NCBI GenBank assembly: GCA_044222185.1
Contig: JBGANV010000003.1
Coordinates: forward strand, 288,001 to 352,000
Source: Planctomycetota bacterium
GTDB taxonomy: Bacteria > Planctomycetota > GCA-002687715 > CAIWVZ01
Direction: 5' to 3'
Length of the DNA stretch: 64,000 nt
Positions 6,360-12,629 of the stretch are shown here, piece by piece (position 1 is the stretch's first letter; the number at the start of each line of letters is the position of its first letter). Below the pieces are notes generated by a model. That model was given only the letters and a program-made list of their open reading frames with translations. It was not told where the DNA came from and did no database searches. The translations under genes were made by a program, and so were the position numbers.

Positions 6360-7397
6360 TCATTTCCGGAAAAAGAAGAGGACGGCAACGGCCACCGCAG
6401 CGCCGAGCAGCACGGCGCCGCCCCAAACGAGAGCCGGCGATACCGACCGCCTCGGGCGCGACGACGAAATGATCACGCGCTGCCGCGACGTGGACTGGCT
6501 TGCAGGCGAAGCCGTCCGCTTGGCTCCCGGACGCGTGGCAGGGCGCGGCACTGCGGGCACCGGCATGCCGCCCGTCGCCCCTGCCGAAGCCGGATCGGGG
6601 TGCGTTTGGGCACGAGGCATTTCGACGGTCGCAACGCTCCGCGCGCTGGCGACCGGCCCGGTTGCGGCGGTTCCGGCCGTGCCGTGGCCATGCGCGGGAG
6701 CCGGAGCCGTGGGCGCGGCATGCACTCGCGGAGTCGGCGGAGCCATGGCTGGCCGGGGCGCACCGGCCGTCGCAGGTGCGGAAACCGCCGCTTTCGCCGC
6801 CGGCTTCTCGTCTGCGAGCATCTTCACCTTCTGGAGCACGAGCATCGAAAGGCCCTTGAACGTCTCGACGACGCCCGTGCCTTTCGCCGCGACCGCCTCG
6901 AATGTCGGGACGTTGAAGCGGTTGAGCGTTCGGTTCATCTCGTCGAGCGTGAGCGCGTTCGGCAGGTCGCGCTTGTTGAACTGGATGACGTGCGGCATCT
7001 CGCACAGGGACCGGCCTTGTTCGCGCAGGCAGTCCTCCAGGTTCTGGAGCGACTCGACGTTCTCGGCCATCTTCTCCGGGTTGCTGTCGGCGACGAACAC
7101 GACGCCGTCGGCGCCCCGCAGGACGAGCTTGCGAGTGGAGTTGTAATAGACCTGCCCAGGAACCGTGTAGAGCTGGAACTTCGTCTTCATCCCGCCGACG
7201 GTGCCGAGGTGGAGGGGCATGAAATCGAAGAACAGCGTCCGGTCCGACTCGGTCGCGATCGACGAAAGAACGCCACGACTCTCGTCCGGCGCCTTCTGGT
7301 GAACGACCTCGAGATTGGTCGTCTTTCCGGAAAGGCCAGGTCCGAAATACACGACCTTGCAGTTGATCTCTCGAAGGGCCAGGTTGAACTGCACCAC
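6360..7397 (-). CDS. mglA: MglA-family small GTPase with Pro/Ala linker and C-terminal TM helix
   Basis: G1 GPGLSGKTTN, G2 DRTLFFDF, G3 TVPGQ, G4 NKRD, G5 EAVA; C-terminus LVWGGAVLLGAAVAVAVLFFFRK. Confidence 0.92.
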   Translation of the reverse strand: MVQFNLALREINCKVVYFGPGLSGKTTNLEVVHQKAPDESRGVLSSIATESDRTLFFDFMPLHLGTVGGMKTKFQLYTVPGQVYYNSTRKLVLRGADGVVFVADSNPEKMAENVESLQNLEDCLREQGRSLCEMPHVIQFNKRDLPNALTLDEMNRTLNRFNVPTFEAVAAKGTGVVETFKGLSMLVLQKVKMLADEKPAAKAAVSAPATAGAPRPAMAPPTPRVHAAPTAPAPAHGHGTAGTAATGPVASARSVATVEMPRAQTHPDPASAGATGGMPVPAVPRPATRPGAKRTASPASQSTSRQRVIISSSRPRRSVSPALVWGGAVLLGAAVAVAVLFFFRK

Positions 7398-7775: not shown

Positions 7776-8885
7776 CTATCGGGAGCGATCCACCGCAGCC
7801 GCCACGTCTCGGGCAGCCTCGCGGACCGCATCCAAGTGACTCGATGTGATGGCGACGACGAGCACGAGGGCGCTCCAGCCACCGACGACGACGATCGTCT
7901 TGCGCCCCGAGACGATCTCCGTCTCCTGGAAGGCGCCGATTCCGATCCGCCGCGCGCACACGGAGACCGTGCGCCGCATCATCCCTGCGAGGGCGAGGAA
8001 TGGGTCGGGCTCGGATGAATCCGCCTCGCGAACCTGCCCCTGCATCGCGACGAGTTCGTGCGCCGGATGAACGAAGGCCACGCGCTCGACGCCGCCCAAT
8101 TCGGAGAGGCCTCGCAGCGCGCGCGACAGCTTGGGCTTCAGCCCGGGCGCCGCGCCGAGACGGCGGCGATCGCGCGGACGCCATGCGTCGAACGGACGGT
8201 CCCGGTCTTCGACGGTCTGGATGAGCACGTCGATCGTCGAGGTCTCCAGGGGTAGTCCCGTGAGGCAGTCCTTCAGACATTCGCCGTCCGGGTCGTTCGC
8301 CCGGAGATCGAGCAGCGCGTAGACGTGGTGGAGCGCGCTCGCGACGGCGCCGACGTAGTAGTAGGCCTCCGCGAGCGCGAGGTGAGCGTCAGAGTCGTTG
8401 GGCTTTCGTTCCACGACGAGGAGCCATGACCGCACCGCGGCAAGGCCGTCCGCAGCGACATGGTCCCGGGTGAAGCGTCGCCACAGGATCCGCGCGCGCG
8501 CCGCGACCGCGTCCGGCGAGTCCGGATTCGCCGCGCAGAAGCGGTCGGCAACCCCCAGGGCCAGGTCGAGTTCCTCTGCCTGACCGTAGTGATCGATGAG
8601 CGCCGAGAAGTCGCCGCCGTCGCCGCGGCCGTCGACGCGCCCGACGAGCTCGAGTTCGCGTCCCCGTCCGACCTGCCGCCAGATCAGACGCAGCTGATCT
8701 GCCATCTCTCGCGAGCGCGGGAACCTCTCGACCCCGGCCCGGGCGGCGTCCATGGCGCGGTCCCAGCGGCCCTGTCGCACCAGGGCGCGGCACTCTGCCA
8801 GGATGGCCCGAGGACCGTCGGTCGGCGGCGCCCGTCGGGACGCCTCCACCCGCGGTTTGGTTGTGCGTTTGAGAAAGCCCAGCAT
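7776..8885 (-). CDS. TPR-repeat protein with C-terminal roadblock-like domain
   Basis: TPR-like helices ('AHLALAEAYYYVG'); C-terminus 'LSELGGVERVAFV...RRIGIGAFQETEIVSG' is roadblock-like; GGAG upstream of ATG 8885. Confidence 0.7.
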   Translation of the reverse strand: MLGFLKRTTKPRVEASRRAPPTDGPRAILAECRALVRQGRWDRAMDAARAGVERFPRSREMADQLRLIWRQVGRGRELELVGRVDGRGDGGDFSALIDHYGQAEELDLALGVADRFCAANPDSPDAVAARARILWRRFTRDHVAADGLAAVRSWLLVVERKPNDSDAHLALAEAYYYVGAVASALHHVYALLDLRANDPDGECLKDCLTGLPLETSTIDVLIQTVEDRDRPFDAWRPRDRRRLGAAPGLKPKLSRALRGLSELGGVERVAFVHPAHELVAMQGQVREADSSEPDPFLALAGMMRRTVSVCARRIGIGAFQETEIVSGRKTIVVVGGWSALVLVVAITSSHLDAVREAARDVAAAVDRSR

Positions 8886-9317
8886 CACTCCACAGCCTGA
8901 CGCGTGTTCGAGCCCGGTGCCGGCACGCAAAAACGCGGGCGCGGCGGAGGACCTTCCCGTTTATCGGTAGGACAGAGGCAGTTCGTTGACGGCAGCCCGC
9001 GCGATCCACGGAACCCGGTCCGCCCGCGTAGAAATGGGTCGCGCGGCTGCGCGACCTCACGCCTCCGCCGACGTGATCGCACGCAAAGGCGCGCCGGCGC
9101 GCCTGCTCGGAGCGTCCGGGACCCGCCGACGCTGCTGATAGTTGCAGTTCCCGGCTGGAACGGCCGGCCCCGGACGCGCCCCGAGCTTCTCGATCCGTCG
9201 TCGAGAACCGCGGAGGAAACCCGGCGAAGCATCTTCCTGCGCGCGTCCGACGATCAGGCCGGCCCTCGCGACGATGCGTCACCTCCCCGTTGCCGCCTCT
9301 CCGCGGCGACCAGTCTC

Positions 9318-9346
9318 TTGCCCAGCCACCGGTCGACGGATAGACT
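9318..9346 (+). promoter_or_regulatory. Putative sigma70 promoter of the candidate ncRNA
   Basis: TTGCCC (9318-9323), 17-nt spacer, TAGACT (9341-9346). Confidence 0.55.
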
Positions 9347-9352
9347 CGCCGC

Positions 9353-9598
9353 GTCGTAGGGGATCCCGCGCGGACCCCGTGGCGCGAGTGGGCGATCAGG
9401 TGGCTCTGAGCCCCTCGCATCAAACAGACAACGTCGGCCCGACCGGCCGGCATGACAATGGAAAGCGGATGGGGTTGTGTGTCTCAATACACGTAAAACT
9501 CCCTCCTTCCTCTCTACGCCTGAAATCTAGCTCCTCGTCTGCTTTCCACTTTCAAACGAGACAGTTCCGATCAGATGCTGATCGGAACTGTTTTTTTT
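9353..9598 (+). ncRNA. Candidate novel structured small RNA (~245 nt)
   Basis: Bounded by a promoter and an intrinsic terminator; hand-folded hairpins at 9359-9378, 9384-9418 and 9433-9451; 16-bp stem 9459-9474/9533-9548 enclosing a CU-rich loop; no credible ORF. Confidence 0.6.
9561..9598 (+). terminator. Rho-independent terminator
   Basis: ACAGTTCCGATCAG-atg-CTGATCGGAACTGT perfect stem running into a T8 tract (9591-9598). Confidence 0.85.
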
Positions 9599-9629
9599 GA
9601 CGGAGCACGTTGCCGCAGCGCCCGTTTGC

Positions 9630-9657
9630 TTGAGCAAGCGTTCGCCGCTGATAACAT
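9630..9657 (+). promoter_or_regulatory. Putative sigma70 promoter (extended -10) for the chaperone operon
   Basis: TTGAGC, 16-nt spacer, TAACAT with TGn extension, about 80 nt upstream of ATG 9739. Confidence 0.45.
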
Positions 9658-9738
9658 CGCGGCCCGTCAAGCATTAACTGAGCGAAGCCAACGACTTACG
9701 TTCAGCATCCTTCACGCCGAGTGCGCGGAGAGCCATCG

Positions 9739-11634
9739 ATGAAGGCGTGTGCCCATTTCCTGCCGTTCGTTCTGATCGCGACATTCTGCGCAGCTCCGCT
9801 CGCCGCGCAGGAACACCCCAAGCCCAGCGCGGAGGTCGACGCGACGGTGCCCGTCAAGCCGGCCACGCCGGTGCCGCAGCCGCCCACGCAGCCGAACGTC
9901 CTGCAGCCGCAGGGCGTCGAGAAGCCCGCCGATCCGAGCAAGGTGCGCGCGACCTTCGAGCTGCAGGGCGCCACGGTCCCGATCACCGAAGGCGAGTTCT
10001 ACGACGCGTACCGGCGCCTCGAGAAGTTCGACACCAAGCAGGGCATGAAGATCACCGTCGAGCGCGCGTACGAGCACCTGCTCTCCTACGCAGAGGCCAA
10101 GGCCCTCGGACTCGAGGCGACGGCAGAAGAGGTCGCGCTCTACGACCCGCTCGCCTCCAATCCCGAGCTCGCCAAGCAGACGCGTGAGCGCTGGGAGAAG
10201 GATGGCATCACGCAGGCGATGTACGACGCCTTCCAGCGGGAATCCCGCACGATCCAGAAGGCGAAGGACCTCTTCGCGAACTCGGTCCGCGTCTCGTCGA
10301 GCGAGATCTTCGACATGTACCGCCGAGACCACTACACCTACCGACTCGAGTACGTCGAGTTCCTCGCGTCCGCCTACGCGGCCGAACTCCGGCAGGCGAA
10401 ACCGACGGATGCGGACCTGAAGAAGTTCTGGGACGAGAACACGATGGTGCAGAACAAGCACCGGATGCAGGCGACGGTCACGGCGGACTTCGTCTACTTC
10501 GACCCGGCGATGTCATCGGGGAACGCCGTCGAGACACGAACGGTCCCCCGCGAAGAGGCCATCGCCTACTACCAGAAGCACAAGGCGCGGCTCGACTCGC
10601 AGATCCCGTCCGAGCGCCGCAAAGAGCTCTACCCCACCGGCCAGGCGGACCTGACGTCGCTCGTCACGCCGTTCTCCATACTCCGCCCGATCATCGAGCG
10701 GGAGATCCTGCTGTCGGGTCGGGTCGCGACGGCATTCCAGGAGGCCAAGGCGGGTGCAACCGATCTGAAGGCGCTCGCCGCGAAGCACGGTCTCGGTTTC
10801 GTACACATCGAAAAGGCGAACCGGGACGTGATGGCCCAGCAGCACCTGCGGTTCGGCGCGCAGGCGTTCCCGGTGCTTTCGAACCTGAACCCGAACACGC
10901 TGTCGGACGAAGTGAAGATGGAGGGGCAGCTCCACTTCTTCTATCGCCTCCTCGACAAGGAGCAGAGCCGCCTCCCAGACTTCGCCAGCGTCCGCGAGCA
11001 GATCCTCGGCGACTACATCGAGACGACCTCGCTCCAGCGCGCGCAGAACGCCGCCCAGGAGTTCCGCAACTCGATCGACAAGAAGGTGGATCAAGAAATC
11101 GCGGCCGAGCAGGAAACCCAACTCGGCAAGGCCGAAGCGGATGCCAACGCCGAGATCAAGCGTGACAACGTCACGGACGGTCGCCAGATCGAGGGAATCA
11201 AGGCGCGGTATCGACTCCAGGCCGAAGCCAAGATCCGCCAGATGAAGGACGGGATGGCTCCGAAGTACTTCGCTCAAGCGGTCACGGACGCAAAGCTGAA
11301 GCTTCTCGATACGGGCCCGTTCGAAGTCGGCATCCCGCGCGGTGACCGCGGCGCGAACCCCGAGGATGCACAGGCTCGCATCGACTTCCTGAAGACGGCC
11401 TACCAGGTCCGCACGATGGAGGTCGGTCAGATCAGCACGGTCCTGAGCGACGCCGTGACGAAGTCCCACTTCGTCGTTCGCGTGGTCGAGAAGGCCGAGC
11501 CCGACTTCACGAAGATGACCGACAGCGAGATCCTGTCGTTCCGCTCGTCGATCGAGCGCAACAAGTCGTTCCAGGCCGTGTACCGCTGGACCTACTACGA
11601 GATCTCGCGGCGCTGCAACCTCGTCGTCAAGTGA
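9739..11634 (+). CDS. Exported SurA/PpiD-like chaperone
   Basis: Signal peptide (AAPLAAQE); 'VRVSSSEIFDMYRR...YRLEYVEF', 'PTDADLKKFWDEN', 'PDFASVREQI', 'GQISTVL...HFVVRV' PpiD/rotamase-like pattern. Confidence 0.65.
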   Translation: MKACAHFLPFVLIATFCAAPLAAQEHPKPSAEVDATVPVKPATPVPQPPTQPNVLQPQGVEKPADPSKVRATFELQGATVPITEGEFYDAYRRLEKFDTKQGMKITVERAYEHLLSYAEAKALGLEATAEEVALYDPLASNPELAKQTRERWEKDGITQAMYDAFQRESRTIQKAKDLFANSVRVSSSEIFDMYRRDHYTYRLEYVEFLASAYAAELRQAKPTDADLKKFWDENTMVQNKHRMQATVTADFVYFDPAMSSGNAVETRTVPREEAIAYYQKHKARLDSQIPSERRKELYPTGQADLTSLVTPFSILRPIIEREILLSGRVATAFQEAKAGATDLKALAAKHGLGFVHIEKANRDVMAQQHLRFGAQAFPVLSNLNPNTLSDEVKMEGQLHFFYRLLDKEQSRLPDFASVREQILGDYIETTSLQRAQNAAQEFRNSIDKKVDQEIAAEQETQLGKAEADANAEIKRDNVTDGRQIEGIKARYRLQAEAKIRQMKDGMAPKYFAQAVTDAKLKLLDTGPFEVGIPRGDRGANPEDAQARIDFLKTAYQVRTMEVGQISTVLSDAVTKSHFVVRVVEKAEPDFTKMTDSEILSFRSSIERNKSFQAVYRWTYYEISRRCNLVVK

Positions 11635-11663
11635 CCGAAGCCACGGTGAACGGAGTTCGAGAC

Positions 11664-12629
11664 ATGATTCGCATGAAGACCATCACCCAGCTCGCGGCCA
11701 TCGTCGTGTTGACGGCGGCTCACGTCGTCGCTCAGGAGAGCGCGGCGGCAATCTGGAAGGATCTCGAGGCAGCCCTTCCCCGCCACGGGACATCGACGTT
11801 CCAGGCGACGCCCCCGACGCCCAGTGCCGCCATCGACTGGCAGTCCGTCATGGAGAAGACGGAAGGTCTGATGGTGCGCGGCGCAGATTCGGCAGTCGAG
11901 CCCTTCGCCATGTTCTACGTGGCGAACTTCCAGTTCGAGACGGGCCGGCTCGACGAAGCCATGGCGCTCTACGACACGATCCGACAGAAGTTCCCGAAGC
12001 ACGCACTCGTCACTGCATCCCTGACCAAGGACACGAAGCCGCTCCTCGTTCAGGCGATCGAGGACTGCGCCTCCGAGATCGCGTGGCGCAAGAAGTACGC
12101 GCGCCCGCCGATGCAGGTCCCGGTTCTCAACGAGAAGCACACGGCGACGCTGCACCTTTCGGCCGGCGACGTCACGATCGCCTTCTTCGACAACGTGGCC
12201 CCGAACCACACGAAGAATTTCGACGAGCAGGTCGCCGCCGGGCGATTCGACGGCACCAAGGTCGGGCGGATCATGGCTGAAACCGTCGTGAACCTGGGAG
12301 ACCAGGCGACCAAGGCGGATCCGACCGCGCAACCGACTGGCCGCGCTCCGCAATCGCAGTTGCCGTCGATCGCACCAGAGTATTCGAACCTCTCGCACAC
12401 GCGCGGGATGGTCGCGATGTCGCGCAACATGGGCGCAAATGAAAGCTCGGCGACGCAGTTCCAGATCATCTTGAAGGACCAACCGCACCTCGATTTCCAG
12501 CAGACGATCTTCGGCAAGGTGATCTCCGGCCTCGAAGTCGTCGATCAGATCTCGAAGGCGATGAAGAACCAGTTCGAGGTCCCGGCCGCCGACGTGATGC
12601 TGAAGGGCATCACGATGAAGAAGCCGTGA
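11664..12629 (+). CDS. Exported TPR + cyclophilin-type PPIase domain protein (divergent active site)
   Basis: Signal peptide; TPR segment; 'APNHTKNF', 'HTRGMVAMSR', 'HLD...TIFGKVISGLEVVDQI'. Confidence 0.8.
   Translation: MIRMKTITQLAAIVVLTAAHVVAQESAAAIWKDLEAALPRHGTSTFQATPPTPSAAIDWQSVMEKTEGLMVRGADSAVEPFAMFYVANFQFETGRLDEAMALYDTIRQKFPKHALVTASLTKDTKPLLVQAIEDCASEIAWRKKYARPPMQVPVLNEKHTATLHLSAGDVTIAFFDNVAPNHTKNFDEQVAAGRFDGTKVGRIMAETVVNLGDQATKADPTAQPTGRAPQSQLPSIAPEYSNLSHTRGMVAMSRNMGANESSATQFQIILKDQPHLDFQQTIFGKVISGLEVVDQISKAMKNQFEVPAADVMLKGITMKKP

Follow-up and report, generated by a model that had tools for sequence, protein, structure and literature searches.

Among described small RNAs (sRNAs), the closest analogue in design to the one considered here is the Cuckoo/CcsR group of the Alphaproteobacteria. 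Our subject is a putative structured sRNA gene at 9318–9598 on the plus strand of a 64,000-nt stretch of planctomycete DNA, the whole of which we call the window (coordinates below are window positions, and G000 denotes the window's own genome). According to PMC4615179, the Cuckoo/CcsR RNAs (RSs0680) carry two to four adjacent hairpins, each with CCUCCUCCC in its loop, and are multi-copy siblings in which the stems drift by compensatory change whilst an exposed, pyrimidine-rich and partly anti-Shine-Dalgarno (anti-SD) motif stays fixed; pairing with ribosome-binding sites (RBSs) has been proposed for them. Multiple copies, drifting stems and a fixed, exposed pyrimidine-rich motif are common to both RNAs, but the planctomycete RNA comprises a single closing stem around a mini-hairpin and a 35–50-nt strand, and comes from a different phylum. 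Nor is it a member of the group: CCUCCUCCC is absent from 9350–9600, and a long stem closes the internal multiloop that holds its tract.

Other known RNAs offer looser parallels. RsaE/RoxS of the Firmicutes and 6C of the Actinobacteria act independently of Hfq and present C-rich unpaired motifs to G-rich or Shine-Dalgarno (SD) regions. These motifs are short C-runs in several loops, whereas the planctomycete RNA has one long C/U tract together with a non-pyrimidine half, CUACGCCUGAA, and the two families show no Rfam sequence or structure match to it. In being apparently abundant, conserved and sometimes multi-copy, and in having conserved single strands of the kind that serve as ligands of global factors, the RNA is like CsrB/RsmZ and 6S. 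A CsrB/Rsm-type sponge is nevertheless rejected, there being no GGA in the tract and no CsrA (PF02599) found in the 93.8%-complete genome. So too is 6S RNA itself, since the sole RF00013 candidate of the genome lies elsewhere and the locus does not have the 6S architecture, a rod with a central bubble. That candidate (C1:77549-77724, plus strand, locus L095) reaches 42.1 bits against a gathering score of 46.4, with an E-value of 1.1e-6. In Y RNAs, which are around 100 nt long, the 5' and 3' ends form a stem around a pyrimidine-rich internal loop; the planctomycete RNA is alike in its end stem, internal loop and length, but Ro/TROVE (PF05731) was not found in the genome and there is no Rfam match. 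An Hfq-dependent sRNA was also considered and set aside: Hfq (PF17209) was not found in G000, although absence from a 93.8%-complete assembly is not proof.

Searches for known families gave the same picture. With Rfam 15 at gathering thresholds, the whole 64-kb window returned no matches. In E-value mode, the interval 8800–9800 gave seven, all with E-values of at least 0.79 and none in 9440–9539; two, to mir-4773, fall on the terminator palindrome (9540–9607) and the rest lie outside 9355–9587. A first-pass annotation, made from the sequence, had called the RNA a novel candidate and had not recognised it as tmRNA or 6S, which agrees with these results and with an empty tRNA/tmRNA scan. The literature searched, supplementary files excluded, yielded no matching small RNA of Planctomycetota and no paper with the core sequence, and the searched passages of 10.64898/2026.10.21.760802 and PMC5737381 held no planctomycete match. 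Very probably this is a genuine, expressed and independently transcribed structured sRNA family that is absent from Rfam 15 and from the literature searched.

Architecture and covariation of the conserved domain

The features of the locus, all on the plus strand, are as follows.

9318–9346 (+): putative sRNA promoter TTGCCC-N17-TAGACT, read in the sequence (TTGCCC 9318–9323, TAGACT 9341–9346)
9353–9451 (+): variable 5' leader with predicted helices P1 (9359–9378), P2 (9384–9418) and P3 (9433–9451), and an A/C-rich linker (9419–9432)
9452–9552 (+): conserved sRNA domain, matched by covariance model R1 at 93.6 bits
9459–9548 (+): closing stem, 9459–9474 with 9533–9548, 16 bp here and 12 bp as modelled
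9477–9492 (+): mini-hairpin with a near-invariant GGUUG just before it, from the fold and from changes on both sides
9493–9532 (+): unpaired tract, GUAAAA-CUCCCUCCUUCCUCUCUACGCCUGAAAUCUAGC, in minimum free energy (MFE) and centroid folds, with an invariant 20-mer at 9505–9524
9499–9515 (+): pyrimidine stretch CUCCCUCCUUCCUCUCU, read in the sequence, within the unpaired tract
9561–9598 (+): intrinsic terminator with a 13–14-bp stem, AUG loop and U8, read in the sequence and folded
9630–9657 (+): putative separate promoter of the downstream gene, TTGAGC-N16-TAACAT, read in the sequence
9739–11634 (+): downstream syntenic gene, 631 aa, not part of the RNA, with SD sequence GGAGAG at 9727–9732

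Folding 9350–9600 on the plus strand recovers all three leader helices (P1–P3), the long stem with its mini-hairpin and unpaired tract, and the terminator. The MFE is -110.2 kcal/mol, against -81.9 ± 5.0 for 200 shuffled sequences (z -5.69), none of which folds as well, and the centroid structure agrees with the MFE structure, the tract being unpaired in both. Three G-U pairs (9467–9540, 9470–9537 and 9472–9535) occur in the 16-bp closing stem; the terminator arms are 9562–9574 and 9578–9590, A9561–U9591 can extend the stem and U8 occupies 9591–9598. Helices, G-U pairs, pyrimidine tract and terminator therefore all lie, by sequence and by fold, where the first-pass annotation had placed them. 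Because the opposite strand gives a good fold too (z -4.47), folding by itself leaves the strand unassigned. What lifts the feature above chance is conservation and covariation, not the fold.

The covariation was examined in two alignments, A1, which holds 29 distinct copies, and A2, which holds 51 model-aligned matches, 45 of them distinct. In A1 the tract and GGUUG are invariant while the closing stem changes entirely, as in GGAAAGCGGAUGGGG/CUCCUCGUCUGCUUUCC compared with CAUGGCCGAGG/CCUUGGUCAUG. RNAalifold run on A1 as aligned by MAFFT predicts 19 pairs, with compensatory changes in nine. In A2, changes on both sides are seen in 15 of the 17 modelled pairs (11 of 12 in the closing stem and four of five in the mini-hairpin), and 96.2% of the cells are paired. 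None of 500 shuffles reaches these values, and sliding the partner by one to three columns lowers the share of paired cells to 33–58%. A2 was fitted to the model and is hence biased towards the structure, but the independent MAFFT/RNAalifold result agrees with it, and the structured RNA that had been predicted from a single sequence thus shows covariation in both alignments. GGTTG precedes the mini-hairpin in 39 of the 45 distinct sequences. G-U or U-G pairs are frequent at many stem positions (at each of two, for example, in 13 of 45 sequences); since they would be A-C mismatches on the other strand, they fix the RNA on the plus strand.

Within the tract, the core CCUUCCUCUCUACGCCUGAA is invariant, and its non-pyrimidine half, CUACGCCUGAA, is as frozen as its pyrimidine half. 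The tract is poor in G, every listed sequence having zero to three over the 30 nt that follow UAAAA; that of the window has two, and no GGA. The locus had been described at the outset as presenting an anti-SD loop. CCUCCUU is indeed unpaired in the window, but it is no family invariant, for CCUCC/CCUCCUU occurs in 15 of 29 A1 sequences and 20 of 45 distinct A2 sequences, the tract of family f2 reads UCCUUCCUUCCUCUCU, and half of CCUUCCUCUCUACGCCUGAA is not anti-SD-like. Some pairing of that kind is nonetheless feasible: the 16S tail of G000 is canonical (GGAUCACCUCCUUUCU), which, together with the use of GGAG as SD sequence, means that CUCC and CCUCUC words can pair with RBSs. GGAG/GAGG stands upstream of 28% of putative starts against a background of 15%, a noisy comparison that uses a crude gene map drawn from GC content at third codon positions (GC3).

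The core box also appears inside other scaffolds (loci L026 and L054). Three f3 genomes (L145 in G015:C35, L146 in G009:C4 and L147 in G019:C65) contain a conserved element that reads CCCUUCCCCACUACGCCUGAAC followed by a strong hairpin and a U-run, on the strand opposite to the pattern match and, in two of the three (L145 and L146), upstream of a tRNA with a CAU anticodon. It appears to be a sibling sRNA built on another scaffold. At four further loci (L078, L079, L024 and L031, in G008, G018 and matching metagenome-assembled genome (MAG) records) the box is tandemly duplicated in the loop (CUCUCUACGCCUGAAAUCUACGCCUGAAUA).

Distribution, transcription unit and expression

The first-pass annotation dealt with a single locus. 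Homologues do exist in the same intergenic position, but the RNA proves to be a multi-copy family with three strong copies in G000 (R1 scores of 96.3, 93.6 and 86.5 bits). The two additional copies, at C1:811000-811078 and C6:918561-918631, came from a BLAST search of G000's own assembly (7.08 Mb, 16 contigs) with 9300–9620 as query and are 88–89% identical. A weak fourth copy at C1:492711-492827 (plus strand; locus L058, 1501–1617) scores 28.1 bits with R1 and 39.9 with the broader model R2. It has the same plan of stem and GUAAAG, with a longer and different G-poor tract (about 49 extra nt) that lacks the CUACGCCUGAA box.

Among 40 relatives and G000 itself, BLAST matches were obtained in 22 of 41 genomes, all within one order (f1 4/4, f2 9/9, f3 7/8, f4 1/1), and none in the 18 other families sampled. 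The matches are always confined to approximately 9440–9552, starting in relatives at 9440–9457 or so. R1 matches all 23 genomes of the window's class, which in the genome set used is the same as its order, at one to five matches per genome, and the exact 20-mer at 9505–9524 is kept in 22 of them; the remaining genome, G021, has a diverged tract, GCUUCCACUCAACGCGUGAAAUCU, at the syntenic position. An exact scan for the 20-mer CCTTCCTCTCTACGCCTGAA across 185,579 species, one genome each, returned 31 stretches. By record title, 29 are planctomycetes (MAGs labelled Planctomycetota, Planctomycetia, Isosphaeraceae, Singulisphaera and Ca. Kuenenia), one is an 'uncultured bacterium' and one belongs to the Deltaproteobacteria.

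Across a sample of 151 genomes of the phylum, R1 matched six genomes outside the class, whilst R2 matched 20 genomes, 13 of them outside the class (f63 4, f25 2, f36 2, f37 2, f46 2, f53 1); under Infernal's stricter filters the RNA was not found in the remaining 131. The out-of-class relatives share a plan of closing stem, GGUUG, small hairpin, GUAAAA, a G-poor, C/U-rich strand of 30–50 nt, often GAAA, and a closing UCCYYGG. They keep the architecture and the pyrimidine richness; the tract sequence differs.

Transcription probably starts just after the promoter-like site at 9318–9346, passes through roughly 100 nt of lineage-variable leader and stops at the hairpin and U8, which would give an RNA of some 245 nt; copies with a short leader would yield around 115–130 nt. 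The self-contained structured RNA of about 245 nt proposed earlier stands as an RNA gene on the plus strand, but its conserved part amounts to only some 95 nt (9452–9552). P1–P3, which had been counted among its elements, lie in the variable leader, cannot be aligned between relatives and are not part of the core. For the leader, MAFFT/RNAalifold on the 13 syntenic loci gives no consensus structure. Inspection by eye shows, in most relatives, a hairpin immediately before the conserved domain, along with an A/C-rich linker resembling ACGAACAA.

The putative sRNA promoter is weak, agreeing at 8 of 12 positions with a consensus that is that of E. coli. A simple consensus scan called no promoters and no terminators at the locus, despite the plain hairpin and U8, and left the 9630–9657 site unflagged as well; negatives of the simple terminator scan are unreliable for long stems. 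Under looser rules, a -35/-10 pair lies upstream of 20 of 32 class loci, compared with 133 of 640 shuffled upstream regions (21%). The closest relative, L076, has TTGCCT-N17-TAAACT at a similar distance. From the end of the -10 element to the domain there are 70–134 nt in syntenic loci of f1, f3 and f4, and 11–41 nt in other loci with a nearby call; these distances suggest that the family has long and short forms. Downstream, a hairpin with a U-run follows within 110 nt in 20 of the 32 class loci, which again points to the plus strand, and by eye the sequence directly after the closing stem is mostly pyrimidine- or U-rich in the other 12.

At 13 loci of f1, f3 and f4 the RNA lies upstream of a homologue of the 631-aa gene, and by eye GGAG occurs within about 15 nt of the ATG in all 13 of these downstream genes. 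In seven f2 loci it lies upstream of an LpxA-type gene (Hexapep and Acetyltransf_11 domains), of which the only one scanned, L081, has genes for an extracytoplasmic function (ECF) sigma factor and a kinase upstream of the RNA. In four further f2 loci an EamA gene precedes it. Unrelated neighbours flank copies 2 and 3 of G000, which have a promoter in common, TTGAC(A/G)-N17-GAGAAT. A second promoter-like site, TTGA(C/G/A)-N16-18-TA(C/G)GAT, was seen by eye after the terminator at L060, L068, L070, L077 and L080. The argument that a separate promoter for the next operon speaks against an attenuator is supported by such a site here and in syntenic loci, and the arrangement of terminator and promoter-like site supports the RNA being an independent gene.

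Part of the stretch is contained in 24 public runs (17 studies), 15 of which are recorded as RNA, with word shares of 0.26–0.40 that correspond to the conserved part; they come from sludge, soil, rhizosphere, wastewater and sediment. Four RNA-library runs were aligned, each with one contig on the stretch.

Run X1: 154-nt contig covering 9375–9528, thereby taking in non-conserved leader, 0 differences
Run X13: 175-nt contig covering 9447–9549, 0 differences
Run X4: 185-nt contig covering 9446–9552, 3 differences
Run X7: 204-nt contig covering 9446–9546, 0 differences

The X13, X4 and X7 contigs begin with 55–77 nt of unlike 5' sequence, and those of X13 and X4 end at 9549 and 9552. The discrete transcript anticipated by the first-pass annotation may have a counterpart in RNA-library contigs of 154–204 nt that cover the domain, though these do not give strand or ends. 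Word shares in the other runs, and stretches that the contigs leave uncovered, count neither for nor against it. The evidence for a small abundant transcript is good but indirect.

Possible partners of the open strand

What the conserved strand does is a matter on which our preferred reading, base pairing in trans through the exposed tract, stands at about an even chance. The covarying closing stem and the small hairpin would hold open a single strand of about 40 nt, G-poor and pyrimidine-rich, and the RNA would act in trans and without Hfq, pairing this strand with purine-rich segments of mRNAs such as RBSs and intercistronic regions. The sub-window engaged would differ from target to target, which would account for the freezing of the tract along its whole length. 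The RNA possesses the conserved unpaired seed expected of a trans-encoded base-pairing sRNA.

The best lead to targets is the head module of a prophage at approximately G000:C1 1095200–1100900 on the minus strand (locus L109, 13257–18829), with genes identified through PHROGs as large terminase, portal, scaffold/protease-like and major head proteins. On the sense strand, successive intercistronic regions of this operon hold three perfect 11-nt complements of the tract, all inside a 2-kb span: GCGUAGAGAGG(GA) covers the SD sequence of the scaffold gene (13 bp with one G-U pair), AGAUUUCAGGC lies some 20 nt upstream of the start codon of the head protein and UUCAGGCGUAG directly follows the head gene. 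A fourth region, before the portal gene, has a 10-bp match that includes G-U pairs. A cluster of three matches within 2.5 kb is reached anywhere in the genome by four of 300 shuffled tracts. In post hoc comparisons, the summed duplex energy of five junctions is -140.6 kcal/mol against -101.0 ± 8.5 for shuffles, and Watson-Crick runs of at least 10 occur at three junctions for the real tract, no shuffle having two. Each of the prophage boxes matches another part of the tract, the non-SD half among them, as a strand that pairs with multiple targets would predict.

A good deal weighs against base pairing in trans. Over roughly 4,000 5' regions, the real tract gave a mean duplex energy of -21.95 and the reversed tract one of -22.22; 9-mer seeds beside likely starts numbered 14 for the real tract and 5–20 for five controls; and 11-mer complements across the genome totalled 35, against 34.6 ± 29.9 for shuffles. 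The 5' untranslated region (UTR) of the downstream syntenic gene showed no excess complementarity (z -0.67 to +1.30 in the nine of 12 loci scored), and complementarity to the ribosomal RNA operon was no better than that of shuffles. The gene map was a crude, GC3-based one. Thirty invariant nucleotides exceed the usual seed, and the RNA-library contigs give neither strand, ends nor level, nor proof that the locus is transcribed, and had no silent control stretch alongside. The prophage lead is itself post hoc and comes from one genome only: a search of the other 22 class genomes for the major head protein came up empty, and its relatives in IMG/VR are only 26–42% identical, eight of them in low-GC phages and none with clustered boxes. 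With the prophage private and lacking close relatives, the lead cannot be checked by comparison. The annotation's own proposal, an RNA that occludes RBSs in trans or sponges a protein, stays at the level of a proposal, and the target tests are null except for this prophage.

Two other searches bear on targets. A genome-wide duplex search with 8-mer seeds brought out only the antisense strands of the three sRNA genes, and a 16-mer complement of the tract had two matches in IMG/VR, both inside coding regions of unrelated phages. A 14-nt complement at C13:71002 and a long match on C6, inside a signal-peptide open reading frame (ORF), look like chance.

A tentative alternative, which we hold to be on the unlikely side, is that the RNA binds a protein, as a sequestering or scaffolding RNA in which the frozen tract, flanked by GUAAAA and GAAAU, is the site of a factor that binds single-stranded pyrimidines (ribosomal protein S1, a cold-shock or KH-domain protein, Rho, or a factor of the 16S 3' tail); an abundant multi-copy RNA would titrate or deliver such a factor. 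The null target statistics fit this, as do the 20–30 invariant nucleotides retained across four families while the stems drift, the same box in unrelated scaffolds and in tandem in G008 and G018, the out-of-class relatives that keep composition (G-poor, C/U-rich) and architecture but not sequence, and an occurrence in many small RNA libraries that suggests abundance. Yet no gene for a candidate protein is linked to any copy, GGA motifs are lacking, genes for CsrA, Hfq and Ro were not found, and the intercistronic complements in the prophage are more easily explained by RNA pairing.

Much less probable is a cis-acting role, as leader, attenuator or 5'-UTR-derived RNA of the downstream gene (the 631-aa envelope-like gene in f1, f3 and f4, lpxA in f2). 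At 13 loci the RNA does immediately precede a homologue of the 631-aa gene in the same orientation, and at seven it so precedes an LpxA-type gene, mostly without a separate terminator hairpin in these seven, but a terminator and then a promoter-like site intervene both here and at syntenic loci, the EamA group and copies 2 and 3 of G000 have other neighbours or orientations, no alternative pairing between domain and terminator is evident, and complementarity to the downstream 5' UTR is not in excess. That the locus is no RNA gene at all, and instead a repeated DNA element (similar to a repetitive extragenic palindrome or a miniature inverted-repeat transposable element, or a DNA site for a protein) or a small coding gene, strikes us as extremely improbable. 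Its multiple copies, the 152-aa open frame that spans 9142–9600 and the good fold of the opposite strand could be read in this way. They are opposed by strand-specific G-U pairs and compensatory changes, by the low number of matches per genome (1–5) with synteny conserved across families, by indels of 1–2 nt in the hairpin loop and the A-run that break the frame while all three codon positions are invariant, and by overlapping ORFs that belong to no Pfam family and whose upstream parts are not conserved.

A bolder and rather doubtful proposition is that the RNA is a global regulator of the Planctomycetota, class-wide and scattered elsewhere through the phylum. Its frozen 20–30-nt strand would exist as the dedicated ligand for a conserved partner, either a protein or a group of mRNAs; the RNA would fill the role that Hfq- or CsrA-linked RNAs have in other lineages, and would be exploited by a resident prophage. 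If so, late gene expression of the phage would be coupled to a host sRNA through the intercistronic boxes of the head genes; and if these boxes are real targets, they would exemplify a phage that has wired its late operon to such an RNA. A class-wide, multi-copy and apparently abundant RNA with textbook covariation and an unusually long invariant single strand, from an organism whose genome yielded neither an Hfq nor a CsrA gene, is a clean place to start on post-transcriptional control in this lineage, which belongs to a phylum whose small RNAs are little studied. The covariance model is ready for annotating metagenomes and metatranscriptomes.

Neighbouring genes

The sRNA gene sits in a 790-nt gap, with divergent genes for TPR, MglB-like and MglA-like proteins on one side and the co-oriented 631-aa gene on the other. 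Across 9450–9600 the GC content drops to 0.47–0.50 from 0.72. Domain matches identify the divergent neighbours as MglA-like (Arf/Ras), MglB-like (Roadblock) and TPR proteins, in keeping with the earlier statement that the RNA is transcribed divergently from the mgl genes. Between the TPR gene and the sRNA promoter, 8931–9317 (about 390 nt, 66–74% GC) has no conserved match in relatives and contains overlapping ORFs without a Pfam family; the promoter and 5' UTR of the divergent operon may lie here.

The 631-aa protein has an N-terminal signal-like segment and no Pfam family, and its gene is followed by one for a TPR-cyclophilin isomerase at 11631–12629 (plus strand), the stop and start codons overlapping. 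On the divergent side, the MglA-like GTPase (6360–7397, minus strand) matches Arf/Ras at residues ~14–184 and continues into a C-terminal Ala/Pro-rich extension of about 150 aa with a hydrophobic segment at its end.

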